Below are positions 40,133 through 60,334 of a stretch of 64,000 bases of DNA, one piece after another. Source of the stretch: Candidatus Gottesmanbacteria bacterium (GTDB lineage Bacteria > Patescibacteriota > Microgenomatia > UBA10105 > UBA927); assembly GCA_903821745.1 (NCBI GenBank), contig CAIJMI010000005.1, positions 199,802 through 263,801 on the forward strand. The letters run 5' to 3'. The notes beneath the pieces are model-generated. The model searched no databases, had not been told where the DNA came from, and saw nothing but the letters and a program-made list of their open reading frames with translations. The translations under genes were made by a program, and so were the position numbers. Every line of letters begins with the position of its first letter. The first letter of the stretch is position 1.

Positions 40133-41242
40133 TCAATAAAATGCATTATCTTTATTAACAATATTAACTACGATATTATAAAGAGAAAAAGCAATTCTAG
40201 CTTGGGATTCTTGATACAAATGCATTATGTCCATAAACATTGTTTCCTCTACGTTGGCAACGGCTGAAGATAGATCAACAAAGTAAACATTCTTATTACC
40301 CATAGCGTCAACGACTCGTTTCTTCATATCACGAAACCACTCCTGTTCTGTTGACATCACTAATGGTTTTTCTTCATCGGTTAAATACAATTTGTCATAC
40401 AAAATTGGCTGCAATATCGCAATATACTCACTTCCAAACGCATGACTTATTTTGTGGGCTTTTTGTAAATTATCACTGTATACGGAAATAATAGTATTTT
40501 TCCATGATTCTGAACCGTACATAGCCTCATTACGTATTTGTGTGAGAGGAACAAATTGATTCAGATACCATTCAGGAGCAAATCGTTCCGCAAAAAACTG
40601 AACAACCGGTAACTTAGATATAAAAAACTTCCAGATTGACATTCTTTCAGGATAAAGCAATGGACTAACCTCATACATCATATAATCATATGGATAACCT
40701 GGTCTTGGATCATAATATAAAGGGTGATACAAATCGTTTACTCCATCATATTGAATAATAAGATCTGGCTGTAAATTAGAGAGATTTGTTACGATAGTCA
40801 TTAATTCTTGAGAAGACACAGCAGAAATAACCCCAAAATTATACACTCGTACATTATAATATCCTCGTTTATGAAATTCTTCTTCAAGTAAAACTGGTAA
40901 AGACGGATCTCCTATGTATACTGTTGATCCACCCAATATACATATTCTGTATTCATCTACGGGTTTCGGTACAACAGGATATGGACCGCGATATCCTTCT
41001 TGATTATGATCTTCCCAATACGGAAGTCCTTTAAACATAATATATGGGTATGGAATCTTATAGGTATCTGTACGAAAACGTTCCTGTACAGGGTTACGAA
41101 TGCTAAGATACGCACTAAAAATAATGTTGATAATGGAAAAAAATAATATTATAGCGATCACAACTGCACTAATTTTCCCCAAAAGCGCTATCCAATAAGA
41201 TGTTTTTTTCTCTTTAAATAATCGTTTAGGTACGAAAAACAT
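40133..41242 (-). CDS. Membrane-anchored SGNH/GDSL-family hydrolase (paralog 1 of 5)
   Basis: N-terminal TM; block I ILGGSTVYIG, block III QYDGVNDL (GxND), block V DIMHLY (DxxH). Confidence 0.6.
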   Translation of the reverse strand: MFFVPKRLFKEKKTSYWIALLGKISAVVIAIILFFSIINIIFSAYLSIRNPVQERFRTDTYKIPYPYIMFKGLPYWEDHNQEGYRGPYPVVPKPVDEYRICILGGSTVYIGDPSLPVLLEEEFHKRGYYNVRVYNFGVISAVSSQELMTIVTNLSNLQPDLIIQYDGVNDLYHPLYYDPRPGYPYDYMMYEVSPLLYPERMSIWKFFISKLPVVQFFAERFAPEWYLNQFVPLTQIRNEAMYGSESWKNTIISVYSDNLQKAHKISHAFGSEYIAILQPILYDKLYLTDEEKPLVMSTEQEWFRDMKKRVVDAMGNKNVYFVDLSSAVANVEETMFMDIMHLYQESQARIAFSLYNIVVNIVNKDNAFY

Positions 41243-41297: not shown

Positions 41298-42773
41298 ATT
41301 ATGTCATTTACGAGGAGTTCGAGAAAATCACTATTCTCCATTCATACATACGAAAAAGCAATGTTTTGTCTCTGTGTGCTACACATTTTTTTAAGACTAC
41401 CTCTTCGAACTATGATTCCATTTAATGACGGGAATGTGTACTATGCAACAGTTTTTAACATTATCCAGAATAACCTCAATCCATTTATTTTTACAATATC
41501 ATATAAACCACCAGTCATTAGCGAGCTCATGGCTATTATTTTCTCGGTATTCCATCCATCTATCGTCATTGGAAACATAGCAATGTATATCATTTCATCC
41601 GTAACGTTATGGTATATATATCTTCTCGGGAAACGTGTATTTACTCCAGTTGTTGGTTTTTATGCCGCGTTACTATGTTCCTTATTTCCTCTTTTTACTG
41701 CTCAAAGCGTTGTTTTTAACGACGCCGTTATTGTCACAACTGTTGTTCTTGCTACGGTCTATTATTTCTTTTCATCTAATTGGATTGGGTATGGCATTGC
41801 CTGTTCGCTTCTTGTCTTAACAAAAGAACCACTTCTCGCTGTCCCTGTATTGCTCTATATATACTCCGTCATATATACATTTCAAAAATCACATACATCA
41901 TTTCTCACAATACTGATAAAACGAATTCCACTCCTTTTTCCACTTATATTATTTCCGATATGGATGTATATAAATAAACAAACACTCGGTATATATCTGG
42001 ATCCGATAAACCAAAACAAATCGTATCTACATCGTTTTTACGGAGCGCCCATTCAAGAAATCTTAAAATATCTTTTTGTTAAAAATGGCATGTGGTGGAT
42101 ATGGTTAACATTCGGTGTAACACTACTTAAACACTCAAACAGGATAAAAAAACAATGGATCATCATTATGTGGTTCATAACGATTTTTTTGTTCTACGGA
42201 ATATTCTTTTCTCTAAGCGCCTTTAATCCAAGATACATGCTCCCATATTTTCCATATGTTTTCATAAGCTTTTGTGCTGTACTGTTCTTCGCATATTCCA
42301 AAAAATTTTTTCGACTCTTTATACTCCTAACAGTTATTATGTTCCTCGGAATACATATCAATCTCTTTTTCTTCAACGTATCTGATGGCTGGGGAGAAGG
42401 TGATTTACGTATTATTCAAACAACGTCTCTTTATACAAAAACTTTTGAGTATGTCTACGAACATTACCAACATCCTCTCATCGTCACCTATCCTGAAGTG
42501 TATACGTGGAGCGATACTGCATTTGGAAAAACTCCAGGCGCATACAAATATGAATGTTACTTTTTTAATCAAATTAATGATGAGAAAGAAGAAATGCAAC
42601 GCATGTTCACCTATGCAAAAGAAAAAAATGCGTCTCCTATTATCTTTATTCAACCAAGTTACATGGGTGAAGTAAACGAAATAAACGCAATACGAAAATT
42701 GCCTATTAAACGAATTAATAATCCGTGGAATAAATATAACTATCACGACTTATACGAAATTGCAGTACAATAA
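41298..42773 (+). CDS. GT-C fold glycosyltransferase, ArnT/PMT(PMT_2)-like (paralog 1 of 3)
   Basis: Polytopic. First extracytoplasmic loop FNDGNVYYA...NPF...YKPPV resembles the ArnT/PMT DExxYA...KPPL signature; about 12 TMs. Start at the internal Met (41298) to leave a divergent promoter; the ORF begins at 41244. Confidence 0.5.
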   Translation: MMSFTRSSRKSLFSIHTYEKAMFCLCVLHIFLRLPLRTMIPFNDGNVYYATVFNIIQNNLNPFIFTISYKPPVISELMAIIFSVFHPSIVIGNIAMYIISSVTLWYIYLLGKRVFTPVVGFYAALLCSLFPLFTAQSVVFNDAVIVTTVVLATVYYFFSSNWIGYGIACSLLVLTKEPLLAVPVLLYIYSVIYTFQKSHTSFLTILIKRIPLLFPLILFPIWMYINKQTLGIYLDPINQNKSYLHRFYGAPIQEILKYLFVKNGMWWIWLTFGVTLLKHSNRIKKQWIIIMWFITIFLFYGIFFSLSAFNPRYMLPYFPYVFISFCAVLFFAYSKKFFRLFILLTVIMFLGIHINLFFFNVSDGWGEGDLRIIQTTSLYTKTFEYVYEHYQHPLIVTYPEVYTWSDTAFGKTPGAYKYECYFFNQINDEKEEMQRMFTYAKEKNASPIIFIQPSYMGEVNEINAIRKLPIKRINNPWNKYNYHDLYEIAVQ

Positions 42774-43833
42774 ACAAGATATGCAACGATTACTCGCCAG
42801 CGTACTACCTGTTCTCCAATCAAATTTCAAAAGACTTCCCCATCCATATAAATTAACCTTTGCAATAACCTATCGGTGTAACTCACGATGTACCATTTGT
42901 AATATCTGGAAAAAACCGCATTTCCCTGAAATGACGCTTGATAACATCAAAAAATTTTTCACCGCTAATCCTTACTTTCGCTGGGTAAATTTAACAGGAG
43001 GAGAAGTATTTTTACGACCTGATCTTATTGAGATTATCAAGATAATTCTTCATACACAAAAAAATCTATATTTTTTAAACTTTCCAACAAACGGCATCAT
43101 GACAAAACAGATTGTTAAACAATTACAACAAATTCTTAATCTTAATCCACCCCATTTCATTGTATCTATCTCTCTTGACGGTCCCAAAACAACACATGAT
43201 ACGCTTCGTGGAATAACAGGAAACTGGGAAAAGGCAGTAAAAACTTATAAAGAATTAAAGAAACTACGATCCAGTCATTTTGACACCTATTTCGGAATGA
43301 CACTCTCTCATTATAATAATGGACTCATCGAACAAACTTATGAGGAACTAAAAAAAGCCATCCCCTCACTTAAGCGGTCTGATATTCACTTCAATATTGC
43401 CCATCATTCATCTCATTATTATGGAAATACTGCTCAAGACGGAAACGTCAACATAAAAACAATAGAGCATCTTGATGCGTACAACAAAAAAAAGAGCTTT
43501 GTGTTAACAAAAATATCGTTCATAGAATATGTTTACCAACGCCACATAAAACAATATCTCACAACAAAAAAAACACCTCTCCCATGTCTTGCGCTCTCAA
43601 GTTCAGTATTTCTTAACCCCTATGGCATGATTTATCCATGCTCCATGTGGAATATGCCTCTTGCCAATATTCAAGATATTAATTATGATCTCCAAGCGCT
43701 CTGGAATACAAAAAAAACAAAACAGGCAAGAATCCTCATTGCGCGAAAAAAATGTTCAAATTGCTGGACACCATGTGAAGCATATCAAAGCATCTTGGGC
43801 AATATGTTTACATCTGAAGTATGGGAAAAATAA
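42760..43833 (+). CDS. Radical SAM protein with C-terminal SPASM/twitch-like Cys cluster
   Basis: CNSRCTIC (Cx3Cx2C) at residues 40-47 and a C-terminal Cys cluster ...PCLA...YPCS...CSNCWTPCEAY; 357 aa. Confidence 0.8.
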   Translation: MQYNKQDMQRLLASVLPVLQSNFKRLPHPYKLTFAITYRCNSRCTICNIWKKPHFPEMTLDNIKKFFTANPYFRWVNLTGGEVFLRPDLIEIIKIILHTQKNLYFLNFPTNGIMTKQIVKQLQQILNLNPPHFIVSISLDGPKTTHDTLRGITGNWEKAVKTYKELKKLRSSHFDTYFGMTLSHYNNGLIEQTYEELKKAIPSLKRSDIHFNIAHHSSHYYGNTAQDGNVNIKTIEHLDAYNKKKSFVLTKISFIEYVYQRHIKQYLTTKKTPLPCLALSSSVFLNPYGMIYPCSMWNMPLANIQDINYDLQALWNTKKTKQARILIARKKCSNCWTPCEAYQSILGNMFTSEVWEK

Positions 43834-45296
43834 CATTTCCCCGCGTACAACGACTTCTTCTTATCAATCCCTACGCAGGGTATGCACAAGGAACAAATGA
43901 ATCGACTGTATATCCTCCCATCGGACTTTCTTATGTTGCAGCCAGCGCTGAACAATGTGGCGTACACTGTAACATTATTGATGCCGCAGCACTAAAATTA
44001 CCGATAAAATCGTTGTTTGCCACAATTAAAGCATTTGTACCCGATTGTATTGGTATTACGAGTAACATTGTTACCGCTGAAGCAGCAATTCAAACTGGGA
44101 AAGAGATACATGCACGGTTTCCAACAATTCCCCTTATTTTTGGTGGTCCTTATGCAACGGCATATCCTGAATATATCTTAAAACAAACACAAGGCTATCT
44201 TGTTATTCGAGGAGAAGCAGAAGAAACTATCAAGGAACTTCTATCCAGACGCGTTTCTCTTTCATCAATACGTGGTATTTCATATAAAAAGGGACGTAGA
44301 TATATACACACAAATCAACGCCCATTAATTCAGGATATCAACACAATTCCCTTCCCCGCTTACCATTTACTCCCTCCACTATCCGTATATAAATCAAGAA
44401 ATAGAAAAACACCAATAGGCGTCATCCTCTCAAGTCGTGGATGTCCCTATCAATGTATTTATTGCAATGCAAATATTTTTGGAAAACAATTTCGCCCAAG
44501 AAGTGTCGATAATGTATTAAAAGAAATAGATATATTAGTTACTACATATCACATCAAACAACTAGATGTTTTAGACGATAATTTTACATTACTTATTGAG
44601 AGAGCTGAAGCAATTTTTGACGGTATTATTAAAAATAAGTTTAACATTCGTATCAATCTTCAAAACGGCGTACGAGCAGATCGACTTAGCCCACGGCTTA
44701 TTCGAAAAATGAAACAGGCAGGTGTCTACAAAGCCACCATAGGCGTAGAATCAGCCGATCTCCACATACAAAAAACCATAAAAAAAACATTGTCACTTCC
44801 AAAGGTTGTATGGGCAATCAAACAATTTCGCAAATACGATATTATTACTGCGTGCACATTTATCTTCGGCCTACCTGGAGAAACAAAGAAAACCATTGAA
44901 AAAACAATAGCATTTGCTATACGCGCTAACCCACATATGGCAAATTTTTCTGCTCTTGTTCCTTTACCGCAAACAGCAGTATACGAAATGATTCAAAAAA
45001 ATGGAACATTTCTCCGGCCTATCGAGCATGGATTACCAACTGGTTTTATCACAAACACATTATATTTTAAACTTGACGCAATAAATCAAGAATTGATTTC
45101 ATTCGCCATGTCTTCTGCTTTTCGACTTTTTTACTTCAGAATTTCAAAACTTATAGATTTATCCAAAACAATCCGTTCGTGGGGAGAATTTACTTGGAGT
45201 CTTTCTATGATTTACGGAGTGATAAAAAATATTAATATTTTTCCATCAACAAAAATATTTTCGCGTTATTTATTACATGAAAGTGAGATATGCTGA
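43821..45296 (+). CDS. B12-binding (class B) radical SAM protein
   Basis: N-terminal B12-binding Rossmann region (LLINPY...YPPIGLSYVAA...IGITS), then SSRGCPYQCIYC (Cx3Cx2C). 491 aa; overlaps the preceding rSAM gene by 13 nt. Confidence 0.8.
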   Translation: MGKITFPRVQRLLLINPYAGYAQGTNESTVYPPIGLSYVAASAEQCGVHCNIIDAAALKLPIKSLFATIKAFVPDCIGITSNIVTAEAAIQTGKEIHARFPTIPLIFGGPYATAYPEYILKQTQGYLVIRGEAEETIKELLSRRVSLSSIRGISYKKGRRYIHTNQRPLIQDINTIPFPAYHLLPPLSVYKSRNRKTPIGVILSSRGCPYQCIYCNANIFGKQFRPRSVDNVLKEIDILVTTYHIKQLDVLDDNFTLLIERAEAIFDGIIKNKFNIRINLQNGVRADRLSPRLIRKMKQAGVYKATIGVESADLHIQKTIKKTLSLPKVVWAIKQFRKYDIITACTFIFGLPGETKKTIEKTIAFAIRANPHMANFSALVPLPQTAVYEMIQKNGTFLRPIEHGLPTGFITNTLYFKLDAINQELISFAMSSAFRLFYFRISKLIDLSKTIRSWGEFTWSLSMIYGVIKNINIFPSTKIFSRYLLHESEIC

Positions 45297-46300
45297 ATTT
45301 CTGAAACTAGTATTTGTGCTATACGGTTGTGGCCTGCTTCAGCGACGTGGCACTCATCGACTAACTCATTAGAATATGAATCTAAAAACAACTGTTCTAA
45401 ATCAACAAATGGAACCTGTTCTTTCTGAGCGACAACCCGTAATAAGGCATTATATTTCGGAACAGATGCACGCCAATTATCTGACGCTGTTTGAGAAACG
45501 TCACCGTGTAAGCGGGTTAGTAATAACACTGACGTTCCCTGAGACCGAGCAATTCGGATAAACTCCTCTATATTATGTACATAGTCTGAGTAAGAAACCC
45601 TTGATACGTTACCTTGCGTTTTTCGAAACACAAGACTCACCTTATCAGAATAATAAAATATCACTTGAAACAAACGAGATATTGACAATGGCGTAATAAT
45701 GCCGGAAAGAAATGAATGGAACTCGTTATCTGGAATTCCCATAGCCGGAGCTGCATCATTCCAACCAAAAGATATAATAATTAGGGATGGATGAAATACA
45801 AATACATCTTGTTTAAATTTCTCCAGCCCTTGATACGATGAGTATCCCATCACTCCCATATTTAAAACACGAAACGGTGTGGATTGATCTTTTAAATAGG
45901 AAGCGAGTACTTCTGGCCATGGAGTATCAACATATCTGCCAGGAATAATCCCTAACGTATTCGAATCTCCATACGTGAGGATAGTACATCCTGAAACGGT
46001 TGCTATATTTTCTTGTATCGATGATCCGCGAATACCCAACTCATTAAATACTCCCCAATTCTTTTTTGGTTTCCAAAATAACACAGGGTCATATTCTAAA
46101 TCAGAGTCATTTTCAGAAAGTACAAAATCCAAACGCAGTTCTTCTTTTTCAACACGCTCTTTTTTTAGTTCTATCGGTTTGTAGTATGAAAGAATATGAA
46201 ACGCGGTAAGTATACGAGCAATACATTCAAAACCAACAAAAAGCAAAATGAAAAAACAAACCCCAAGAATAACAGATAGTATTTTTTCTTTATATGTCAT
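45266..46300 (-). CDS. Membrane-anchored SGNH/GDSL-family hydrolase (paralog 2 of 5)
   Basis: N-terminal TM; block I ILTYGDSNTLG, block III FGWNDAA, block V DECHVAEAGH. Confidence 0.7.
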   Translation of the reverse strand: MTYKEKILSVILGVCFFILLFVGFECIARILTAFHILSYYKPIELKKERVEKEELRLDFVLSENDSDLEYDPVLFWKPKKNWGVFNELGIRGSSIQENIATVSGCTILTYGDSNTLGIIPGRYVDTPWPEVLASYLKDQSTPFRVLNMGVMGYSSYQGLEKFKQDVFVFHPSLIIISFGWNDAAPAMGIPDNEFHSFLSGIITPLSISRLFQVIFYYSDKVSLVFRKTQGNVSRVSYSDYVHNIEEFIRIARSQGTSVLLLTRLHGDVSQTASDNWRASVPKYNALLRVVAQKEQVPFVDLEQLFLDSYSNELVDECHVAEAGHNRIAQILVSEIQHISLSCNK

Positions 46301-46348: not shown

Positions 46349-47677
46349 ATGATATCAAAGAAAAAAAATATAATCTCATTTCTTCACAATATACCTGTAC
46401 GCCTCTTGATTCTTTCTCTTATACTTGGAATAGCAGCATTTACTCCTTTGTTTGCTTATACCTATCCTAATATAGATACCATAACTGACGTTTTTAATGC
46501 AGGAAAAACTATTCCTGACATAGCAATATTTTTTGATTTTACAGGAAGATATAGGGCTTCATGGACGTTATTTGCAACAGTGTTGAACGCAATTTTTTCC
46601 TATCACATTCGTTGGTATTTTTTACTGTATGGTGTCGCACTTGGCGTAACATTGTGGACTATGTTCATGCTTGTGTACCAAAAAAATAAGAGAGTACAAC
46701 ATGAACTACTTATTATTCCAGTATTGATGCTCTTAAACAACATCACTGTAGCAACGTATTGGAGATTAGGTGCATGTGAATCAATATTTACATTGATCCT
46801 AATATGGAGTGTTCTATGCATACAGCAAAAACGGTATACGTTGTGCATTCTATCTCTCCTGTCATTAATTCCATTAAAAGAAATATCAATTATCGTTCTT
46901 CTTATAACTAGTGTTTATATGTTTGTCATAAAAAAATATAGATATGCACTTATTTTATTTATAAGTTCCGCTATGTATGGATTATTCATAAAACATTTCA
47001 TTGCAGAAAGTCTTACCGAAGCAACAACGCCATATTTTCTCACGTTTACATTTACCAGTACTAGGCTTATTGAAATGTTTCATACGTGGGGATTCAAAAT
47101 ACCGTTTGTTTTTATTTTAAGTGGCATCAACACGTTACTTCTCATCATTCATCAAATTGAATTTAAACGGGTAGCGAATATACCACTTTATCTCCTTATA
47201 TTAAGCGTCGGATTACTTTCTCCATATCTCTTTCTTGCGTACACAGAAGAATATTATCTTTTTCCCTCCTATACATGTTCCATACTATGTTTTACTTACT
47301 TAAGTACAACGACACTACAACGTAAAAAACATATACAGTTAGGAATTCTCGTTGGAAGTTGTATATTATTTTTCTACAGCCAATCACATAAAGCATTCAT
47401 TCAACAAGCTTCTTTAATGCATCAAGCGTATATTCAACATACCAAATTAATTGAACGTATGTTTCAATATCCATACTATTTCTATCAACGACAATACAAT
47501 AAAACAGTTACAGAAGATGCATTTACTTCTTGGGTAAATACACAAAACGGTACAAATCAAGATAATACCTCTTTACGAGCAATTGTACATGAATCCCCTA
47601 CACAATCTGAATATAATGGAGCAATGTGGTACGGACCAGATAACGCGTGGGGTATTGAATACATCACCAATAATTAG
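46349..47677 (+). CDS. Polytopic membrane protein, unknown function (possibly polymerase/ligase-like)
   Basis: 442 aa with more than 10 predicted TM helices and a soluble C-terminal tail; no motif recognised. Confidence 0.5.
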   Translation: MISKKKNIISFLHNIPVRLLILSLILGIAAFTPLFAYTYPNIDTITDVFNAGKTIPDIAIFFDFTGRYRASWTLFATVLNAIFSYHIRWYFLLYGVALGVTLWTMFMLVYQKNKRVQHELLIIPVLMLLNNITVATYWRLGACESIFTLILIWSVLCIQQKRYTLCILSLLSLIPLKEISIIVLLITSVYMFVIKKYRYALILFISSAMYGLFIKHFIAESLTEATTPYFLTFTFTSTRLIEMFHTWGFKIPFVFILSGINTLLLIIHQIEFKRVANIPLYLLILSVGLLSPYLFLAYTEEYYLFPSYTCSILCFTYLSTTTLQRKKHIQLGILVGSCILFFYSQSHKAFIQQASLMHQAYIQHTKLIERMFQYPYYFYQRQYNKTVTEDAFTSWVNTQNGTNQDNTSLRAIVHESPTQSEYNGAMWYGPDNAWGIEYITNN

Positions 47678-49371
47678 CAAATATAGTTTTTTTTATGATT
47701 CTTCCTTGTTTTCTTAAAAAATAACACTACTTCATAAATCATACACAAAGAAAATATACCCATCAGTGGATACACCGGGGAAACATATAAAAGTGCATCC
47801 AACTCAAAACAAATAGATTCAATATAACTTATTAAGGTTATCAAAAACATCATGCTCATACCCATCCCAATGATAAACAAATCATATTTATTCATATTTT
47901 TTGTTACAATTTTATGTCTTATTGTAACGATGAAACACAAAATTCCTATACTAAAAAGAACACATCCAATCATCCTAAATAAACGTTGAAACATTCCAAT
48001 AACGACGGTGTGAATTCCTGTTGACTGTATAAGACTACCTTCTGTTTCTTGATCACTGTGATACTTGGTTGTTACTATATGTCCCGTTACAGATTTGGTT
48101 AAGTCAATGTCAGCGATATCACCAGTGCTTTCGTTTGTCAATGTGCCAATTGTATCTAATGATGGAATCCTAAATACTAATCTTGTCACCGACTGTAAAA
48201 ACAACACACTATATTCCATATGAAATTGAGGAATTAAATCGAACGGCCATGCAGTGCATTCTAAAGATTTGTTTTTACATGCATATACTAGTTCTTTATG
48301 AATTTCTTGAAAGAACGTATTTGCGATTTTGTAGGAAGGATAATATCCAAGCCTAAAAGCTGCATCACGTATATCAAATATTAAATTTGCACCCGATATT
48401 TCGTTCGTAGCGATAGTAAAACTGCTTTTGTGTGGAGAAGTTCTATACGTCTCATTTATTAGTTCTTCAACAATTTTAAAATGAGGACTCACGAGCGCCG
48501 CCTTATGCAATGTCAATTTTGATATCGTAGCGTGCCTGATGGGAGTCTCTTGCTTTATTCGAATCAAATCACCGTATACTTTTGTGTATGCTGATTGTTT
48601 TAATTCATTTATGACAAACGTACCATAGTAAAATTTGTTTACACAACTAACAATACACACAAACAATATACCAACAAAATATCCAAATAACACTGTACGG
48701 AAAAACACTGGATGTAAATGTTTACGAAATATATATGTAGAGAGACAATGTCCTATTGGAACAAGATACAAAGGGATAAACCACATAAATTCTTCACGAG
48801 TCAAATAGAACATTGCGCTGAATATACCGAATCCTAATGCCCAAAGTGCATGCTTAAAGCTCCGTTGTTTTTCACTGGCCAACAGTCCGAATATACATGC
48901 AACCGTTCCGATTGTTAAAGACGAGTAAAAATGATGTCGTGTAACACGTTCTGCGATTTGATAAGAAAAAGGGTTAAAAAGAACAAAAAGAAAAACGATA
49001 AATGAACATGCTGTATTATATTTTTTCTTTAACGCAAAAAACAATAAACACGTAGCAAAAATATACAACACTTGTTGACTTTGTAATAAAGGAATGTGAC
49101 TAAAATTAGAAAAGGCTATAAACATTGGATACATTGGTCCTTTTGCCAACGTCATTTCGCTATACTTCCCTAACCATTCTCCATGTATCAATGCATTCGC
49201 CAATTTAATAAACAACATGTCATCAAACCATGAACCACCAACTGCAATTAACATCTGAGTAGAACTCAACCAATAACGAAACAGTATTACACTACCAAAC
49301 AACAATAGAAATAGTATTTTCTTGTACTTTCTTAAAAAGAAGGAGCAATTATGTTTCATACCCTTCCACAT
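47674..49371 (-). CDS. GT-C fold glycosyltransferase, ArnT/PMT-like (paralog 2 of 3)
   Basis: 565 aa. Loop 1 WFDDMLFIKLANALIHGEWLGKY...TLAKGPMYP (DD-x-x-F...GEW...KGP) matches the ArnT DExRYAE...GDW...EKPP architecture. Clearly homologous to the 54629-56302 ORF. Confidence 0.55.
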   Translation of the reverse strand: MWKGMKHNCSFFLRKYKKILFLLLFGSVILFRYWLSSTQMLIAVGGSWFDDMLFIKLANALIHGEWLGKYSEMTLAKGPMYPMFIAFSNFSHIPLLQSQQVLYIFATCLLFFALKKKYNTACSFIVFLFVLFNPFSYQIAERVTRHHFYSSLTIGTVACIFGLLASEKQRSFKHALWALGFGIFSAMFYLTREEFMWFIPLYLVPIGHCLSTYIFRKHLHPVFFRTVLFGYFVGILFVCIVSCVNKFYYGTFVINELKQSAYTKVYGDLIRIKQETPIRHATISKLTLHKAALVSPHFKIVEELINETYRTSPHKSSFTIATNEISGANLIFDIRDAAFRLGYYPSYKIANTFFQEIHKELVYACKNKSLECTAWPFDLIPQFHMEYSVLFLQSVTRLVFRIPSLDTIGTLTNESTGDIADIDLTKSVTGHIVTTKYHSDQETEGSLIQSTGIHTVVIGMFQRLFRMIGCVLFSIGILCFIVTIRHKIVTKNMNKYDLFIIGMGMSMMFLITLISYIESICFELDALLYVSPVYPLMGIFSLCMIYEVVLFFKKTRKNHKKNYIC

Positions 49372-49658: not shown

Positions 49659-51143
<1,485 letters not shown>

Positions 51144-51228
51144 AAATTTCCTATCACCGTTTAATTCACCAAGATATTTACTGTACTGACTATACTGCTT
51201 GCAAATATGTTAACGAGCAAAAAGAGAG

Positions 51229-51254: not shown

Positions 51255-51394
51255 TCATACCCAAAAACACGAAGCGAATTGGCTTACTTTCTCATTGCAA
51301 ATGTCAATTATACGGGAAGGGGTAATCTGCGTCAATCCCCAATGTATTTATGGCTAAATTTACAAACGGAAGCATATACGATACACTAAATACT

Positions 51395-51547
51395 ATGTTT
51401 CAAACCATGAAGCAATTACTCATACTTGCTATCCATTCGAAAAAAATTTGGATTATTCCCATTATCCTCTTTCTCATTATTATCGCCCTTCTTATTATCA
51501 GCGCGCAAATAAGCCCCCTGCCTGTCTTCCTCTACCCGATTTTATGA
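51395..51547 (+). CDS. Small hydrophobic single-TM protein (about 50 aa)
   Basis: MFQTMKQLLILAIHSKKIWIIPIILFLIIIALLIISAQ... Its TGA stop overlaps the ATG of the next small ORF (ATGA coupling). Confidence 0.35.
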   Translation: MFQTMKQLLILAIHSKKIWIIPIILFLIIIALLIISAQISPLPVFLYPIL

Positions 51548-51732
51548 ACGTCATAAAAAAGTTAAACACATTGTTTATAGCATTCAGTGTTGGAATTATC
51601 TACGTTTTTATCATTGGTTTAGCGTGGATCATATATCGGCTGACCCAACATGTTTCTTCAGTTTCAGATAGCTATTGGTTGATACCAGAAAAGAAAAAAT
51701 TACCTAAACACTTTTTTTCATCACCCTATTAA
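51544..51732 (+). CDS. Small single-TM protein (62 aa) immediately upstream of the carbamoyltransferase
   Basis: MNVIKKLNTLFIAFSVGIIYVFIIGLAWIIYRL... It ends 2 nt before the carbamoyltransferase start. Confidence 0.4.
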   Translation: MNVIKKLNTLFIAFSVGIIYVFIIGLAWIIYRLTQHVSSVSDSYWLIPEKKKLPKHFFSSPY

Positions 51733-51733
51733 T

Positions 51734-53431
51734 ATGATCATTCTTGGAATATCAGCGTTTTATCACGACAGCGCAGCAGCCCTTATTGTCAATGGAAAAG
51801 TTGTGGCCGCACTTGAAGAAGAACGGTTCACGAGAATTAAACATGATAATCAATTCCCTATCAATGCAATAACGCGTCTGCTTCAAATAACAAACTACAC
51901 CATTGATGACGTAGACGTGATTGCGTATTATGAAAAACCGCTCTTAAAATTTGAGCGGCTGCTTGAAACGTTTGTAACGACCTATCCATATGCCCTCCGA
52001 CCGTTTCTCAAATCCATTCCTGACTGGTTGGGATCAAAAATTACCGTTGAACATATCATACGAAAAAAATTGCACTTCAAAAAGGAAATTATGTTTGTTC
52101 CCCATCATCTTTCCCATGCTGCATCATCCTTTTTTACGTCCCCGTTTACCCATGCGGCAATCCTCACTATAGACGGTGTTGGTGAATATGAAACAACAGG
52201 ACTTTGGTCTGCAAAAAACAATTCCCTCACTCACCTTGCAGCAATCAATTTCCCCCATTCTATTGGCCTTTTGTATTCGACATTCACAGCATTTCTCGGA
52301 TTTAAAATCAATGAAGATGAATATAAAGTCATGGGACTGGCTGCGTATGGAAAACCGACGTATGAAGATAAAATACGCCAACTCATCGACATAAAACCCG
52401 ATGGCAGTTTTTATCTCAATACAGCATATTTCGGATTTGTAACATCATTTTGCATGTGGAATAAAAAATTTGAATCACTGTTTGGTACCCCACGAAAGTC
52501 ACACGAAGTGGTCAAAAAACGCCACAAAGACCTTGCTGCAAGTCTCCAAAAGATAACAGAAGAAATCCTGTTTGCCATGATCAACCATCTCGCAAACATA
52601 ACAAAAGAAAAAAATCTTTGTATGAGTGGCGGTGTGGCACTCAATGCACTTGCAAACGGAAAACTCTATAAAAACACGCCATTCAGAAGAATTCATATTT
52701 TAGGGAGCGCGAGTGATAGTGGAACAGCAATCGGCGCAGCGCTCTATGTCTACTATAATTTTTTTGGATCGCCGATCAGTCGTCACGAACCACTTGCATC
52801 ACTTGCGCTTGGGACAAGTCCAAGTGATGAGGAAGTCGAACGTGTGCTTTCACAATATTCAACACTCACCTATCAAAAAATTGCAGATGAACAAACACTC
52901 ATCAAAAAAGCAGCAACACTGCTCGCACAGCATAAAATAATCGGATGGTTTCAAGGACCAATGGAATTTGGGCCACGTGCACTTGGCAACAGATCCATTG
53001 TAGCTGCAACCAATCCTCGAAGGATGAAAACGAAAATGAATATTATCAAACATCGGGAGCAATTTCGGCCGTTTGCGGGATCAGCGCTCCAGGAGACGAT
53101 TCATGAATATTTCGAAGTGCCACAAAACAAACATGCGTCGCCTTTTATGAATTTTTGCTTCAACGTAAAAAAACGCAAACAAGAAGCGCTTGCGGCAATT
53201 GTCCATCAGGATGCATCGTGTCGCATACAGACGGTATCACAGGCAAACGGAAGATATTACCGTCTTATTCAGGCATACGCAAAAAAAACGCATATTGATT
53301 GCATCATGAACACGAGTTTTAATCTTCAAGGCGAACCCATTGTTGAAACTCCAAGACAAGCAATTGAAGATTTTCTGAAAACACCGATGGATTATCTCAT
53401 CATTAATGATAATTTCATTTCGAAGCGCTGA
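51734..53431 (+). CDS. O-carbamoyltransferase (NodU/CmcH/TobZ family)
   Basis: N-terminal Kae1/YgjD-like domain MIILGISAFYHDSAAALIVNGKVVAALEEERFTRIKHD, HHLSHAASSFF, and a C-terminal YrdC-like carbamoyltransferase domain; 565 aa. Confidence 0.85.
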   Translation: MIILGISAFYHDSAAALIVNGKVVAALEEERFTRIKHDNQFPINAITRLLQITNYTIDDVDVIAYYEKPLLKFERLLETFVTTYPYALRPFLKSIPDWLGSKITVEHIIRKKLHFKKEIMFVPHHLSHAASSFFTSPFTHAAILTIDGVGEYETTGLWSAKNNSLTHLAAINFPHSIGLLYSTFTAFLGFKINEDEYKVMGLAAYGKPTYEDKIRQLIDIKPDGSFYLNTAYFGFVTSFCMWNKKFESLFGTPRKSHEVVKKRHKDLAASLQKITEEILFAMINHLANITKEKNLCMSGGVALNALANGKLYKNTPFRRIHILGSASDSGTAIGAALYVYYNFFGSPISRHEPLASLALGTSPSDEEVERVLSQYSTLTYQKIADEQTLIKKAATLLAQHKIIGWFQGPMEFGPRALGNRSIVAATNPRRMKTKMNIIKHREQFRPFAGSALQETIHEYFEVPQNKHASPFMNFCFNVKKRKQEALAAIVHQDASCRIQTVSQANGRYYRLIQAYAKKTHIDCIMNTSFNLQGEPIVETPRQAIEDFLKTPMDYLIINDNFISKR

Positions 53432-53434
53432 ACT

Positions 53435-54610
53435 ATGATCAAACAGGTTTTATACAGTATCATAGGCATGTGTATTGTTTTTGTACTCTCTGAACTTTTT
53501 CTTGGAGAAGCTAAAAAATTTTCTCCAAAATTACTTTTTTTTACAAAAAATCCATATCAGCAAAGCCGGTATGTGACCAATATTGACTGGCAAGGATTAT
53601 GGACATTGTCTAACTGCCCTACTCCACCAGAATTTGAATTATATGGATTTGTTTTAAATTCTAAAGGATTCAGGACTCCTGAAACTCCCTACCAAAAACC
53701 ATCAGATACGAAACGGTTAGTCCTACTTGGAGATTCTCAAGCTGTTGGACCAATTCCGTATAATCAATTATTTCTTAACCTATTAGAAAAAAACATTAGG
53801 GCAGAGTATCCAAAAAAATTTCAAGCTATTAATCTCGCATTGCCTTGCATAGGACCCCCCATTGAAGAGATACTGCTTTCTTTAGAAGGAATTCGATATC
53901 AGCCAGACATTATTGTACTTGCATTTTATGTAGGAAACGATTTTTTGGACGCAAATTTAGATATTGAACGGTACGCCAGTGAAAAAAATAAACAACCACA
54001 TATCCTCCCTTTTATATTCTATCAATCAAAACTCATATCGTTAACGCGAAATTTGTATTACACGTTTCGTTTTGGTCGAAAATCTATGATGACGAAGCAA
54101 ACTAAATCATCCCCTTCTTATGGCACGATGGGAATCGATGATTATTCGTCTTACAACCCTCATGAACCAACATTTCCATTGGAGGAATTTTTAGCTTTGG
54201 AAATGGACAAATCATCCATTCTATTACCACATAGCGACGTATACGCTTCATTACCGCAAATTCAGCAAAATATTAGCCATATGAAAGAATTAACTGAAAA
54301 AGCACGGGCACATTTTTTAGTTCTTATTATTCCAGAAGAAATGCAAGTAAATAGAGATCTATTGCATACAATAGCGTTGAAACAAAATATTCCAGTTGAT
54401 TCGTTTGATGTAGAATTGCCACAACGCGTGCTCAAGCAGTATTTCGACCAAAATCATATCAACTATATTGATCTATTGGAAATGTGGAAATCAGATACCT
54501 CAGCAATGCAGTATTTCCAACCGCAAGATACCCATTTAAACACCTTAGGTAACCAATCGGTTGCTCGTATTCTTTTTCCAGAAATAATAAAATTACTAAA
54601 CGAACAATAA
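53435..54610 (+). CDS. Membrane-anchored SGNH/GDSL-family hydrolase (paralog 3 of 5)
   Basis: N-terminal TM; LVLLGDSQAVGP (block I), YVGNDFLD (block III), QDTHLNTLGN (block V). Confidence 0.65.
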   Translation: MIKQVLYSIIGMCIVFVLSELFLGEAKKFSPKLLFFTKNPYQQSRYVTNIDWQGLWTLSNCPTPPEFELYGFVLNSKGFRTPETPYQKPSDTKRLVLLGDSQAVGPIPYNQLFLNLLEKNIRAEYPKKFQAINLALPCIGPPIEEILLSLEGIRYQPDIIVLAFYVGNDFLDANLDIERYASEKNKQPHILPFIFYQSKLISLTRNLYYTFRFGRKSMMTKQTKSSPSYGTMGIDDYSSYNPHEPTFPLEEFLALEMDKSSILLPHSDVYASLPQIQQNISHMKELTEKARAHFLVLIIPEEMQVNRDLLHTIALKQNIPVDSFDVELPQRVLKQYFDQNHINYIDLLEMWKSDTSAMQYFQPQDTHLNTLGNQSVARILFPEIIKLLNEQ

Positions 54611-54628
54611 AAAATACGCTGCATATCC

Positions 54629-56302
54629 ATGAAGAAACCAAAAGTCATTCAGAGAAATACTACTATCGTTTCGACTATTCTTTTTATTATGATAATCGTA
54701 TCACTCACAGTGTTTCGTGTATGGTTGATTAAAAATAGAGAACTAGTTGCCATTACTCCCTCACCTCACGATATGCAGCTGTATATAACAAACGCTGAAT
54801 CCATTGCGAATGGAAATTGGCTTGGTCCATATAATGAACGAATTATTACGAGAGGACCCGTATTCCCACTGTTTATTGCAATAACATATCTTCTTCATAT
54901 TCCGCTTACCATAGCACAGACACTCCTCTATTGTGCCGCAGCATTTTTATTTCTCGGTTGTGCGATACCGTTGGTAAAAAAGAAATGGATCCTGATACCG
55001 CTCTATACGCTCATTTTATTTAATCCTTTTATGATTGATCATGAAACTTTTTTTGAACTCACGCGATCTGCTTTATATCCAGCTCTCAGTATGGCAGTTG
55101 CAATGAGTTGTTTCGGCCTCGTTACTTCGGTACATACAGCGTATAAAAAAAGTGTATTCTATACATGCTCTCTTGGTATATTCTTTTTCCTCTTTTGGTA
55201 CTATCGGGAAGAAGGGTTTTTCTTACTTCCCCTCATTGGTGTATGTTATGGATATTCTTTGTGGATAACATGGAAACAAAAAAAAGTATCAAAAAAATAC
55301 GTCATAGCACTCATAATTCCCATTCTCATATTCCTTGGTGGAACACACATAGTAAGTTCCGTCAATAAAAAAACGTATGGGATATACACAGCACGAGAAT
55401 TTTCTTACCCGAGTTATACAAAAGCGTTTTCAGCATTGCTCCGCATTCAACCAGAAGAGCATAATCCACTCATCAGTCTGCCAAAATCGACAAGACAAAT
55501 ACTGTATGTGGTAAGTCCAACATTTGCAAAGCTCCGATCATTCTTTGAAGGAGAAGGTGGATATGATTGGGCACGCAACAGTGTTGTCTGGACAGGGATA
55601 CCACCGGAAGAGCATGAACTCGCCGGAGGCGCTTTTCATTTTGCCCTCCGTGACGCAATATGGCGGATCACGAGACCTTCACAAAAAAATGAACAACTGC
55701 TTTTCGAGAAACTCACCAAAGAAATCAATGCTGCGTGTAAGGCAAAATATATTTCCTGTGGTCTCTTACCAATTAGCGGATTTACTTTGTTTAATCAGGA
55801 AGATCGTGAACATTTTTATAATCAATTTGTGAACACCATACAAACAGGGGTGCTTGCCGATAACCTCGATCTCTCAACAACTCCCAAATATAGTCATGGA
55901 CCGGAAAATCAAATTGCACTATTTAAAAAAATGACAAGAGGAATTATTCTTACTGATAACCAACGACCTCCATATCAATCATCACTTGTGCCATTCACGA
56001 ACACATATATCCAATATTGGTATCAACAGTTCATGCCAATAATATTTTTGTTGTCGTATGTGTATTTTCTTATACGACTTTTCAAACAACAAAAACTTAC
56101 CTTCACCGATTGGTTTCAGGCCTCATTACTCCTTTGTTCACTATTATTTTACGGCGTAGTCGCATTCTTTGGAACAATTAAATCCCCAACCAATACAACC
56201 GCCAGCTCTTATACATCAGGGGCGTACGCATTATTGCTTCTCTTTGTGTGTTTAGAAATACTCACACTCCAAACCAAGCCTACTGTGAAACACAGGAAAT
56301 AA
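54629..56302 (+). CDS. GT-C fold glycosyltransferase, ArnT/PMT-like (paralog 3 of 3)
   Basis: 557 aa. Loop 1 PHDMQLYITNAESIANGNWLGPY...ITRGPVFP; homologous along its length to the 47674-49371 ORF (FNPF..., K.YG.YT..E...YTKA... blocks). Confidence 0.55.
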   Translation: MKKPKVIQRNTTIVSTILFIMIIVSLTVFRVWLIKNRELVAITPSPHDMQLYITNAESIANGNWLGPYNERIITRGPVFPLFIAITYLLHIPLTIAQTLLYCAAAFLFLGCAIPLVKKKWILIPLYTLILFNPFMIDHETFFELTRSALYPALSMAVAMSCFGLVTSVHTAYKKSVFYTCSLGIFFFLFWYYREEGFFLLPLIGVCYGYSLWITWKQKKVSKKYVIALIIPILIFLGGTHIVSSVNKKTYGIYTAREFSYPSYTKAFSALLRIQPEEHNPLISLPKSTRQILYVVSPTFAKLRSFFEGEGGYDWARNSVVWTGIPPEEHELAGGAFHFALRDAIWRITRPSQKNEQLLFEKLTKEINAACKAKYISCGLLPISGFTLFNQEDREHFYNQFVNTIQTGVLADNLDLSTTPKYSHGPENQIALFKKMTRGIILTDNQRPPYQSSLVPFTNTYIQYWYQQFMPIIFLLSYVYFLIRLFKQQKLTFTDWFQASLLLCSLLFYGVVAFFGTIKSPTNTTASSYTSGAYALLLLFVCLEILTLQTKPTVKHRK

Positions 56303-56339: not shown

Positions 56340-57323
56340 CTATAACATGTGACAGGATTTCAACATTCCGGAAGTTAACAATTGAAAAATAATTTGCGCG
56401 ATATGTGCATGTCCCAAAATATTCGGATGATAATCATGCGGTGCAAAGGTATCAACATCGCCTATTTCTGCATATGCAATATGCGCGTCAGCTGATAGAA
56501 AATGTTGCAATATTCTTTTATACTCTTGGGATTCATCTTGAAGCGTCAAAAATAATAATGGAGATGTCTTCTGTTGTATGAGCGTTCGTATTGCCGTAAG
56601 TTCGGGTTGAAGAAAGATTTCTTTCTTATCTGATGATAACCTGTTCAATGAATCCATATAGTCCTTATACGACAATGTTGATGCCGCATATGGGTCATTC
56701 ATGTCAACCTGATACCGCTTGGAGGCTCCGGTCTTTTGCAGTTCCTTTTTATAAAATTCTTCCCGTTCCCGATATATATCCGTATTCATAAATATATTTT
56801 CACCCCGCACAAACCATATCAGATAATCAGGATGATATTTGGCACCTATATCCTCATATCGTTTTGCAATATAGCGCACATCAAATCCGGGCGCACCTAA
56901 ATTAAGCACCTCAAATTTTTGAATGGTAGAACACGCTATTGTTGTATTTAACCGCGTCTCTAACAGTTCAGAAAAATTCTCATGTTGATTTACCCACATA
57001 CCAAAAACGAAAGAATCACCGAGTGTCATAATTCGAAATACTCCATCATCCTTTTTCACCGAATAGTCGATAGGATCCGCAAGGCCGTCACTATTGTAAT
57101 GATATGTTACTTTTTCTGGCAACCACGCAGCAGTTGCCACATCGTCAATATTTGTGGGAAAAAGATAATAATATTGAAATGTAGCATCAGGTGCGAACGT
57201 CAATAACAAACGAGGTAATGCATTGTGTTGCGGAAAAAACGGTTTTTTAAAAACATATTTCCAAATAAAAAAAATCGCAATCAACTCCATGGACACAGTT
57301 GCAATAAAAATATATTTTTTCAT
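56340..57323 (-). CDS. Membrane-anchored SGNH/GDSL-family hydrolase (paralog 4 of 5)
   Basis: N-terminal TM; RIMTLGDSFVFGMW (block I), LNLGAPGFD (block II), DYHPNILGH (block V). Confidence 0.6.
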   Translation of the reverse strand: MKKYIFIATVSMELIAIFFIWKYVFKKPFFPQHNALPRLLLTFAPDATFQYYYLFPTNIDDVATAAWLPEKVTYHYNSDGLADPIDYSVKKDDGVFRIMTLGDSFVFGMWVNQHENFSELLETRLNTTIACSTIQKFEVLNLGAPGFDVRYIAKRYEDIGAKYHPDYLIWFVRGENIFMNTDIYREREEFYKKELQKTGASKRYQVDMNDPYAASTLSYKDYMDSLNRLSSDKKEIFLQPELTAIRTLIQQKTSPLLFLTLQDESQEYKRILQHFLSADAHIAYAEIGDVDTFAPHDYHPNILGHAHIAQIIFQLLTSGMLKSCHML

Positions 57324-58312
57324 ATACCTTTACAGGAAAAATATGCCGATGTTGTTATCTTATTAAATAAAAACTCTGCAAAAATCGTATGTCCTGTAGC
57401 TGATGGATGCTGATCTGGGAGCTGAGGAAAATTGTCTGGTATCTCTGGATAGAAATGTACTGATGGATACTTGGAAACAACGGATTCTATCTTCAAACGG
57501 ATATCTTCAGGAAATGAGGCGAGAGTAAAAATAATTGTTGGACGAGCAATGCGCTTCAAAAGCTCTTGCAAATATTCCATTTCCTGTACAATTAATGCTT
57601 CACGCGGATGTGTTTCATAAAATTTATTAAACAATACTGTTTGTTCCGGATAAAAATCACCAAGTGAACGGTATTTTTCTACGAGAACAGGCTCCTGCAC
57701 TTGCGGTTCCCACTGAGAATTAAATACTCGAAGCGATTCACTCGGCACTAAAAAATCATTATCATTCGTCCACAACAAAACCAAATCAGGAGTGTACTTC
57801 ATTCCTTTCCGTTGATATCGTATCAGATTATATTGCATATCATATCCGGAAACTCCTAAATTAATAACTTCAAAACGCATTTTGTTGGCACACTGTACGT
57901 GGGCATTTAACATATCTTCCAATACTTCTGAATAATTCTGTTCGGTATTGAGATATACACCCTGCGTGAACGAATCACCAAGAGAAATAATACGAAAAAC
58001 GTCAGGACTTTTCTGTGTTGAATAATCAAACCGCTCATGCAGACCATCTGCATTAAAAGTTTGCGTAATCATTTCGTCCACTCCGAATTTCGCAAAATTT
58101 TCATGTATCTGAATATTTGCTTTTGGTTCGTCGTAAAATTGCAGACCACTATCTTGAAGAATCTGGGTATAGTCTTTTTCTACTGGCAATACATGAATTT
58201 TTTTTGGAGTATGTACAAAACGTCTGTCGTAATACCGATATCCAAGCACACAAATACATCCGCATTCGATCAGGATAAAAATCCACCAAACGAATATCAT
58301 TGGTCTAAACAT
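57320..58312 (-). CDS. Membrane-anchored SGNH/GDSL-family hydrolase (paralog 5 of 5, tandem with paralog 4)
   Basis: N-terminal TM; RIISLGDSFTQGVY (block I), INLGVSGYD (block II), WTNDNDF (block III), DQHPSATGH (block V). 4-nt ATGA overlap with the downstream paralog. Confidence 0.6.
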   Translation of the reverse strand: MFRPMIFVWWIFILIECGCICVLGYRYYDRRFVHTPKKIHVLPVEKDYTQILQDSGLQFYDEPKANIQIHENFAKFGVDEMITQTFNADGLHERFDYSTQKSPDVFRIISLGDSFTQGVYLNTEQNYSEVLEDMLNAHVQCANKMRFEVINLGVSGYDMQYNLIRYQRKGMKYTPDLVLLWTNDNDFLVPSESLRVFNSQWEPQVQEPVLVEKYRSLGDFYPEQTVLFNKFYETHPREALIVQEMEYLQELLKRIARPTIIFTLASFPEDIRLKIESVVSKYPSVHFYPEIPDNFPQLPDQHPSATGHTIFAEFLFNKITTSAYFSCKGI

Positions 58313-58930: not shown

Positions 58931-60334
58931 ATGGCAAAGATAGTCATGGTTCAACTTCAATGCGCTCCCTACTGCGGCACCGCATATTTACACGCTGCAG
59001 CAAAAAAGGCAGGCCACCAATTTATTCTCATCCTCAGCACAGATAGCCAACAGATCTGTCAAAAAATTACGAAAGAGAAACCAGACATCATCGGTTTTTC
59101 CTGTTTAAGCAGTTTTATGAACGATACGCTTGATATTTGTCGGAGCATCAAAAAAATAACAAAAACACCAATTATTTTAGGCGGTCCACATCCCACGTTA
59201 TTTCCTGAGGTTATACACGAAAAATCCATCGATCTTATCTGTCGAGGGGAAGGTGAATTTGCGCTCATGGATCTGCTGAATGCAATCGAACAAAAAAAAT
59301 CATATGCACATATCAAAAATCTTTGGGTCAAAGAAAAAAAGAACATTATCAAAAATCCGCTTCGTCCACTTGTCTATCCGCTCGATACCATTCCCCTCAT
59401 CGATTGGTCCTGTTACCAAAATACGCCAGTCCTCTATGGATCCCCAACGGTATTTCTCATTCGGGGTTGTCCATTCTCCTGTAATTATTGTTTCAATGAA
59501 AAAACACGGGCACTCTACCATGGATTAGGACCATACCTCAGACACTTCAGTGTTCAGCGGTCCATTCAGGAAATCCAAGCTGCATTACAATATTTCCCAC
59601 CAAATCCAATTATTTTTGCATCCGATTCCTTCGGGGTTGACCTTCCGTGGATGAATGAAGTATTCAAAGCATATACAAAAATCACTCCACTCCCCTTTGT
59701 CATATTATTACGACCTGAACTCACAACAAACGCATGCATTAAAATTTTGGCAAAATATAATTGTTACAGCGTCTCAATCGGTGTCGAATCCGGGTCGCGC
59801 CGTGTACGACAAGACATCGTACAAAGAAATTATACAAATGACTATCTCATATCGATGGCAACAACCCTCCATGAGCATGGAATAAAATTTAAGACATTCA
59901 ATATGCTTGGACTTCCGACAGAAACAGAACAGGAAATGTGGGAAACAATTATGATCAACGTTCGAATGAAAACAGATTATCCAAGGGCTGCAATTTTTAC
60001 ACCATTCCCCGGAACAAAAATTGTCGATATTGCGAAGAAATACGGATATTTAGACCAGGACTATGATTTCACCAACTTACCAGAAACCGTTCTTGACAGG
60101 ACCATCCTGAAAAGACTGAATCCAAATTATGTACAGAACATGCTGTTCTTTTTTCAAACCGCCGTACAATTTCCTTGGCTCATTCCTATCATAAAAAAAC
60201 TTGTCCGGTGGAAGTCAAACCTACTGTTTCGCATCTGGTTTTATAGTGTCTATGCGCTGATAAACGGACTTTCGGAAAAACGGTCCCTGCGTACGTATAT
60301 ACCGTATCTGTATGCAAACCGAACATATCGTTAA
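58931..60334 (+). CDS. B12-binding (class B) radical SAM protein (second copy)
   Basis: N-terminal B12-binding domain (IVMVQLQCAPY...IIGFSC...ILGGPHPT), RGCPFSCNYC (Cx3Cx2C); 467 aa. Confidence 0.8.
   Translation: MAKIVMVQLQCAPYCGTAYLHAAAKKAGHQFILILSTDSQQICQKITKEKPDIIGFSCLSSFMNDTLDICRSIKKITKTPIILGGPHPTLFPEVIHEKSIDLICRGEGEFALMDLLNAIEQKKSYAHIKNLWVKEKKNIIKNPLRPLVYPLDTIPLIDWSCYQNTPVLYGSPTVFLIRGCPFSCNYCFNEKTRALYHGLGPYLRHFSVQRSIQEIQAALQYFPPNPIIFASDSFGVDLPWMNEVFKAYTKITPLPFVILLRPELTTNACIKILAKYNCYSVSIGVESGSRRVRQDIVQRNYTNDYLISMATTLHEHGIKFKTFNMLGLPTETEQEMWETIMINVRMKTDYPRAAIFTPFPGTKIVDIAKKYGYLDQDYDFTNLPETVLDRTILKRLNPNYVQNMLFFFQTAVQFPWLIPIIKKLVRWKSNLLFRIWFYSVYALINGLSEKRSLRTYIPYLYANRTYR

Follow-up and report, generated by a model that had tools for sequence, protein, structure and literature searches.

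We analyzed a stretch of 64,000 nucleotides (nt) from Candidatus Gottesmanbacteria bacterium (assembly GCA_903821745.1, contig CAIJMI010000005.1, positions 199,802 to 263,801 of the forward strand), hereafter the window, with emphasis on two small open reading frames (ORFs) that precede the gene for an O-carbamoyltransferase (CT) of the NodU/CmcH/TobZ type. ORF1 (51395..51547, plus strand, ATG to TGA) encodes a DUF5989 (SxtK-type) protein of 50 amino acids (aa), predicted to be a single-pass membrane protein, and ORF2 (51544..51732, plus strand, ATG to TAA) encodes a protein of 62 aa with one hydrophobic segment. The CT gene (51734..53431, ATG start, 565 aa) is followed on the same plus strand by a gene for a membrane-anchored SGNH/GDSL-type protein with an N-terminal transmembrane helix (53435..54610, 391 aa) and a gene for a polytopic membrane protein without a Pfam match (54629..56302, 557 aa), with which the transcription unit probably ends; the neighbour of ORF1 on the upstream side is a complete minus-strand 16S rRNA gene (49659-51145). 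ORF1 and ORF2, each of which occurs only once within the window, share 4 nt (ATGA), the ORF2 stop and the CT start are 1 nt apart (TAAtATG), and 3 nt separate the CT stop from the SGNH gene, i.e. the spacings across ORF1, ORF2, CT and SGNH are −4, +1 and +3 nt; another 18 nt lie between the SGNH gene and the 557-aa gene. The preliminary description of this locus had placed two small ORFs of about these lengths, with an ATGA overlap, before the CT gene, and our coordinates and anatomy agree with it; the closeness of ORF2 to the CT gene stands as well, the gap being 1 nt rather than the 2 nt given there. Below, J stands for SxtJ-type, K for DUF5989 (SxtK-type), and mini-SxtJ for the form represented by ORF2.

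The CT contains both expected domains with scores above threshold (Carbam_trans_N, 283.9 bits, E = 2.9 × 10−84; Carbam_trans_C, 211 bits, E = 1.1 × 10−62), and the motifs HHLSH and GPRALGNRS are readable in the translation. It has no transmembrane segment, and the closest solved structures, those of NovN, GdmN and TobZ (phmmer, E = 1 × 10−65 to 1 × 10−91), are of soluble enzymes. The protein is not NodU, given 140.9 bits against the NCBIfam NodU equivalog (NF041651), for which the cut-off is 1000. Its homologues number more than 8000, and the closest of those that carry a name come from metagenome-assembled genomes of Microgenomates, Roizmanbacteria and Patescibacteria. A CT motif is cited as the putative catalytic site of SxtI (bioRxiv paper). 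A Pfam scan of the approximately 40 window proteins, in which some 20 smaller ORFs were not included, revealed no carbamate kinase or other source of carbamoyl phosphate.

ORF1 matches the Pfam DUF5989 model (PF19451) with 30.7 bits (E = 3.3 × 10−7, profile positions 2-48 of 49), above the gathering threshold of 27 bits, and the DUF5989 membership, for which a hidden Markov model search had been proposed at the outset, is thereby confirmed; the ORF1 homologue in the related locus L003 has a precomputed Pfam DUF5989 match, too. The layout of the protein, with a basic HSKK cluster, a transmembrane helix and a conserved C-terminal SPLPVFLYPIL, corresponds to the RKK, transmembrane helix and APFIYxxF arrangement of the family. 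On average, family members carry 2.3 lysine or arginine residues on the N-side of the helix and none on the C-side, a charge distribution from which we infer an N-in topology. Homologues in relatives with CTs 58-82% identical to that of the window are 49-50 aa long and 66-88% identical in the pairs compared, with a ratio of non-synonymous to synonymous substitution rates (dN/dS) of 0.06-0.13, indicative of purifying selection. An in-frame ATG at 51350 would lengthen ORF1 to 65 aa; this extension is missing in the relatives, the longest of which has 50 aa, and therefore the start is placed at 51395. DUF5989 members adjoining a CT gene were recovered by homology search in 121 loci. NCBIfam holds no model that matches ORF1, ORF2 or full-length SxtJ, and a literature search on DUF5989 found no papers.

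ORF2, by comparison, has no match in Pfam or NCBIfam, and a word-indexed search of 5.8 billion protein clusters returned nothing, ORF2 itself included; the exact ORF2 protein is missing from the underlying collection of 15 billion proteins. A CT identical to that of the window is on record for 9-11 contigs, yet ORF2 was never called there. Therefore, gene callers skipped ORF2, and the word-indexed search came back empty because ORF2 is not called as a gene, not for want of homologues. In an NCBI assembly with an 82%-identical CT, the same 50-aa and 62-aa genes are found in the same arrangement, both annotated. All metagenome relatives with enough upstream sequence have DUF5989, followed by a 62-77 aa ORF2 homologue and then the CT, and in related loci with enough flank (CT 57-82% identical) the ORF2 homologue always lies between DUF5989 and CT. 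Among loci of the type found in the candidate phyla radiation (CPR), to which the named CT homologues assign the window as well, K and J overlap by ATGA in most, and J and CT are 1-8 nt apart in nearly all. A phmmer search with ORF2 of 1.84 billion representative proteins detected 18 relatives, most of them 59-95 aa long; of these, three of greater divergence were inspected at their loci, and the order is K-J-CT in each. The proportion of non-synonymous differences in ORF2 (pN, 0.26-0.29) is well below that of synonymous differences (pS, 0.61-0.79), which indicates purifying selection. The conservation of the small ORFs upstream of CT homologues, which the preliminary description had named as a point to check, thus holds in the relatives with respect to frame, length and position. 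As judged from conservation, ORF1 and ORF2 are confirmed as genuine genes; an example of an ORF2 peptide for proteome matching is LTQHVSSVSDSYWLIPEK.

Gene callers sometimes run mini-SxtJ upstream, in the frame of window positions 51448-51732, which yields spurious proteins of 94-171 aa. The two longer phmmer relatives, of 169-171 aa (P0124 and P0125), were considered as fusions and rejected: in both, the ORF was called too long, in the frame overlapping DUF5989. Among the loci and phmmer relatives inspected, no J-K, J-CT or K-CT fusion was seen.

The first jackhmmer search from ORF2, in genome loci alone, recovered only near-identical copies; with CPR-type metagenome loci added, the search converges on the full-length SxtJ family. 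To compare the families as profiles, we aligned 14 mini-SxtJ sequences and matched this alignment with one of 81 full-length SxtJ proteins from outside the CPR. In hhalign, the mini family matches full-length SxtJ with 96% and E = 3.7 × 10−9, residues 1-51 of the mini form being aligned with positions 79-135 of 146, and matches the C-terminal half of SxtJ alone with E = 1.2 × 10−9. The controls were negative (reversed SxtJ, 0.06; DUF5989, 0.15; the N-terminal half of SxtJ, 0.015). In the opposite direction, the 81-protein profile detects several CPR mini proteins at E = 3 × 10−4 to 0.07, over positions of about 68-133 of 135.

Common to the two forms are the last hydrophobic segment, which contains an F/Y-Y pair and is closed by a basic residue, and a basic tail with an S/T-Y/F-W motif, present in 14/14 mini-J and 63/81 full-length J sequences. 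The terminal residue is Y in all 14 mini-J proteins and F or Y in 76/81 full-length ones. In ORF2 itself, the tail is basic and rich in K/R, contains the motif as S-Y-W and ends in SSPY. The conserved core of mini-J consists of FY, G, R and S-Y-W, with no obvious catalytic or channel-lining polar residues. About 8 K/R residues are found within the last 35 residues of SxtJ, and, from this charge distribution, the tail is probably cytoplasmic. Full-length J proteins have a median length of 138 aa, with three hydrophobic segments in 59/81; ORF2, with 62 aa and one segment, lacks the full-length SxtJ architecture (about 125-150 aa, three hydrophobic segments). The Pfam SxtJ model (PF19588) was not matched by ORF2 and two relatives at E up to 1, the threshold of 24.4 bits not being reached, in contrast to three full-length SxtJ neighbours from other loci that were checked (34-157 bits). 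The model spans residues 12-110 of the full-length proteins, mostly outside the part kept by ORF2, and the match is missing because the model ends before the C-terminal tail. Thus, the SxtJ resemblance suggested in the preliminary description is borne out for ORF2 at the level of homology but not at that of the Pfam model: by profile similarity, ORF2 is homologous to the C-terminal half of SxtJ and is a member of this family in a wider sense only.

Short SxtJ proteins (51-79 aa) are also encountered outside the Microgenomates-type clade (L033 2142-2297; L105 738-977; L111 2401-2616; L123/L125 4866-5042), in various gene orders, e.g. J-CT-K in L033, which comes from a genome of Krumholzibacteriia. 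The truncation of SxtJ may have arisen more than once.

To place the locus in a wider context, loci were sampled by CT similarity, so that the counts given here describe a sample rather than a census; an iterated profile, applied to flanks of 3-4 kb, served to detect SGNH neighbours. In a scan of a genome collection, the CT relatives among the matches listed were 40-48% identical and came from other phyla, with no Microgenomates. In 80 loci from other phyla with such CTs, the gene next to that of the CT most often encodes about 135 aa, and a DUF5989 gene comes after it. Of the 102 non-CPR loci with adequate flanks, 83 contain DUF5989, 87 contain SxtJ, 75 contain both and 95 contain at least one, in agreement with the recurring pairing of carbamoyltransferases with small SxtJ/SxtK-like membrane proteins that had been supposed for this locus. 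The gene order is CT-J-K in 62 of these loci, J-K-CT in 8 (including Pelagibacterales) and K-J in a few (CT-K-J in 2), and J and K are separated by 15 nt or less in about half of them; the order in the window, K-J-CT, is reversed compared to the usual one. A membrane-anchored SGNH gene is present in the flank of 53/102 non-CPR loci, directly adjacent in 41/102, and adjacent in 11/12 CPR-type loci. J or K occurs without an SGNH gene in 43 loci, the opposite in a single locus; the presence of J and K goes with the CT and not with the SGNH gene. The more divergent CPR loci keep the K-J-CT core, within unrelated surroundings. The statement of the preliminary description that carbamoylation of a surface glycan is rare outside Nod factors and antibiotics is overstated: the CT subfamily with its small partners is found in at least hundreds of species-level genomes, and carbamoylation of the lipopolysaccharide core by WapO in P. 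aeruginosa has been documented (PMC13552734).

The canonical CT, SxtJ and DUF5989 modules occur in Pelagibacterales, Planctomycetota, Ignavibacteria, Acidobacteriota, Omnitrophota and others. The locus in the window shares with them the CT subfamily (42-48% identity), the DUF5989 architecture, the C-terminal core of J, close spacing of J and K and, frequently, a membrane-anchored SGNH neighbour. The canonical J, however, has about 135 aa and three hydrophobic segments, in the order CT-J-K, whereas the CPR form lacks the N-terminal two segments, and K-J lies upstream of CT. With TobZ, NovN and GdmN, the CT shares the fold family and the two-domain organisation; these are soluble small-molecule tailoring enzymes that, to our knowledge, have no SxtJ or DUF5989 partners. 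NodU, the Nod-factor 6-O-carbamoyltransferase, and WapO belong to the same enzyme family and both carbamoylate a glycoconjugate, but small partners do not figure in their published descriptions, on which, rather than on the loci, this comparison is based.

The locus also resembles the cyanobacterial sxtI-J-K-L block, which likewise combines a NodU/CmcH-type CT, a small SxtJ-family protein, a membrane protein of about 50 aa and a GDSL/SGNH protein. SxtJ and SxtK are uncharacterised and have been assumed to act with SxtI (PMC2679770, PMC2885083, PMC12300590), and sxtJ, sxtK and sxtL cluster together elsewhere (PMC10157211). By size (sxtK, 165 bp) and position, SxtK would belong to DUF5989. A search from a cyanobacterial DUF5989 protein listed only names such as 'DUF5989 family protein' or 'hypothetical protein', never SxtK. 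The two arrangements differ in order (K-J-CT-SGNH here as opposed to I-J-K-L), in the size of J (62 aa, about half of the 134 aa of SxtJ) and in context, an envelope-glycan locus in a CPR genome compared to a toxin pathway. The window is not a saxitoxin cluster: the neighbouring genes encode SGNH, GT-C-like, radical-SAM, PAP2 and housekeeping proteins, and the core sxt genes (sxtA, sxtG and others) are missing from the 64 kb. By these comparisons, the locus is a reordered and minimised Microgenomates (CPR) form, mostly without annotation, of a module that is widespread and has no assigned function; sxtIJKL is one more instance of this module.

The SGNH protein encoded at 53435-54610 occupies the position of SxtL and is the module's fourth, frequent member. 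It shows weak matches to the Pfam models ALGX and Lipase_GDSL_2, has GDS and D-T-H motifs, and is directly similar to SGNH genes beside CT-J-K in other phyla (5 × 10−18, 3 × 10−13). Across loci, the SGNH partners commonly have an N-terminal helix, followed in most by a motif of the E-L/I-x-x-R type, and the GDS and D-x-H motifs are kept in those inspected. The SGNH partners that accompany CT-J-K in several phyla have 600-830 aa and continue after the SGNH domain into a long TPR-like tail (L070 6323-8818; L018 1680-3974; L040 6446-8275; L022 1859-3751; L126 5533-7767). In a divergent CPR locus (L169 1268-3274), a 668-aa protein of the Phosphodiest type (alkaline-phosphatase superfamily) is encoded 4 nt upstream of DUF5989 on the same strand.

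The region between 36 and 60 kb of the window is a dense envelope-glycan locus, with GlmS, a GT2 glycosyltransferase, a PMT_2-type GT-C enzyme, a PAP2 phosphatase, six SGNH/GDSL-like genes (several with weak Pfam matches), two B12-radical-SAM genes and one SPASM radical-SAM gene; the rest of the window is housekeeping. This glycan-rich context suggests a surface glycan as the substrate of the CT. It is unusual for so many SGNH/GDSL-like genes, no fewer than five in 20 kb (40133-41242, 45266-46300, 53435-54610, 56340-57323 and 57320-58312), to occur together with three radical-SAM enzymes, two of them B12-binding (42760-45296 and 58931-60334). Three large polytopic membrane proteins lack a Pfam match (47674-49371 on the minus strand; 46349-47677 and 54629-56302 on the plus strand). 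The last of these, the 557-aa protein, is a paralogue of the first and is conserved downstream in close relatives only; the two, which flank the block of the 16S rRNA and CT genes, may be unclassified GT-C-like glycosyltransferases. In L003, a further polytopic protein of this kind (655 aa) is inserted upstream of DUF5989.

No other rRNA gene accompanies the 16S rRNA gene, which lies amid the glycan locus: neither a 23S nor a 5S gene is present anywhere in the 64 kb. The leader of the 16S rRNA gene, which extends to about 51335, contains a near-consensus promoter match (TTGACG-17-TATAAT, 51335-51307) and, at 51253-51237, a GC hairpin with a T-run after it. On the plus strand, a sigma-70-like match (TTTACA-17-TACACT, 51359..51387, 9/12 matches) ends 7 nt before the ORF1 ATG; it is weak and no more than a hint, promoter-like matches being no commoner here than in shuffled sequence. 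If it is used, there is a hint that the ORF1 transcript would be leaderless or nearly so. A −10-like box 6-8 nt ahead of the ATG, suggestive of a leaderless transcript, is found in several first genes.

There is no Shine-Dalgarno site before ORF1, and in the start regions of 18 window genes (e.g. 58863, 46300, 60907 and 51395) such matches are almost absent, although the 3' end of the 16S rRNA contains CCUCC. The missing site was considered as special evidence for coupling and rejected as such, since nearly all window genes lack one. The conserved overlaps and abutting codons themselves suggest translational coupling of ORF1, ORF2 and CT; given spacings of −4, +1 and +3 nt and the scant use of Shine-Dalgarno sites in this genome, termination-reinitiation is the most likely mode of translation of the downstream genes.

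We favor, with a probability of about 0.6, the interpretation that ORF1 and ORF2 provide a membrane platform by which the soluble CT would be kept at the membrane, close to an acceptor that is itself bound there. The platform would form at the cytoplasmic face of the membrane, and the CT would be held there probably via the conserved SxtJ tail; in this position, the enzyme, dependent on ATP and carbamoyl phosphate, would transfer the carbamoyl group to the membrane-bound acceptor, in the present case probably a lipid-linked envelope glycan. Once outside the cell, the carbamoylated product would pass to the SGNH protein and the adjoining polytopic proteins for further handling. Termination-reinitiation would tie the amounts of the module partners together. 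A docking role fits better than transport because the part that is retained and conserved is a helix with a tail devoid of catalytic-looking residues.

Several points weigh against this interpretation. The carbamoyl acceptor in saxitoxin biosynthesis is a small soluble molecule, a poor fit to a model that involves membrane acceptors only, and we know of no report that TobZ, NovN, GdmN, NodU or WapO need such partners. The link between ORF2 and SxtJ requires the family profile because ORF2 alone is not significant: the window protein has no match to the 81-protein full-length SxtJ profile at E up to 10, and the closest relative of ORF2, that in L003, reaches E = 1.1. Finally, mini-SxtJ is frameshifted in two lineages (L095 2700-2992; L099 2808-3035 and L100 1352-1579), of which the L099 type has an intact homologue (P0128); these frameshifts could be assembly errors or could signify a dispensable, decaying gene.

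Among the alternatives, the one that fares best, though we consider it unlikely, is a trans-membrane relay. In it, the CT would activate the carbamoyl group, J and K would convey this group, or a carrier that has been carbamoylated, across the membrane to the SGNH protein facing outward, and the latter would install or edit the carbamoyl group on the already exported polymer. Such a scheme would parallel the two-component O-acetylation systems in which an MBOAT or AT3 protein acts with an SGNH protein; it would also accommodate the recurrence of CT, J, K and a membrane-anchored SGNH protein across phyla and in sxtI-J-K-L, as well as the GDS and D-x-H motifs and the N-terminal anchor that the SGNH proteins keep. 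However, one to four hydrophobic segments are all that J and K have, the mini-J core is without conserved polar residues of an obviously catalytic or channel-lining kind, and an SGNH gene is missing from the 3-4 kb flank in 43 of the 95 loci that contain J or K; moreover, we know of no carbamoyl-carrier chemistry of this kind. That CT, SxtJ, DUF5989 and SGNH constitute an unrecognised trans-envelope carbamoylation machine, with the half-size SxtJ as its minimal core, is a speculative and rather improbable proposition.

Similarly doubtful is the idea that the small proteins serve the SGNH and polytopic enzymes, or the export of the product, and not the CT. They are membrane proteins that share an operon with membrane enzymes, and the SGNH gene is often adjacent, but the asymmetry of co-occurrence (J or K without SGNH in 43 loci, the reverse in one) runs counter to this, as do the preservation of the K-J-CT core in the unrelated neighbourhoods of divergent CPR loci and the restriction of the 557-aa membrane protein to close relatives.

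The position of the small ORFs directly upstream of the CT gene, with overlapping or abutting codons, is what would be expected of regulatory upstream ORFs or leader peptides that control CT expression by the act of translation. This role is contradicted because the homologues follow the CT in most lineages (CT-J-K in 62/102 loci); the purifying selection acts on the amino acid sequence, and the protein families are conserved across phyla, so that regulation of this kind is highly improbable. That ORF2, or both ORFs, arose by chance in AT-rich spacer DNA, as the missing Pfam and NCBIfam matches of ORF2 and its absence from the gene calls on contigs with an identical CT might suggest, can practically be dismissed given the frame, length, position and C-terminal motifs kept to 57% CT identity and beyond, the excess of synonymous over non-synonymous change and the specific SxtJ match.

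The retention of the CT partners in a very reduced CPR genome argues that these partners are needed. Half of SxtJ, i.e. one hydrophobic segment with the S-Y/F-W tail, appears to be enough, which points to a small, defined element, and this half-size form is missed by gene callers and by Pfam. The locus would be useful for working out the function of SxtJ and SxtK, to which none has been assigned since the first account of the saxitoxin cluster. Given that the CT-J-K(-SGNH) arrangement is common, carbamoylation of envelope or membrane molecules may extend beyond the few cases that have been studied.

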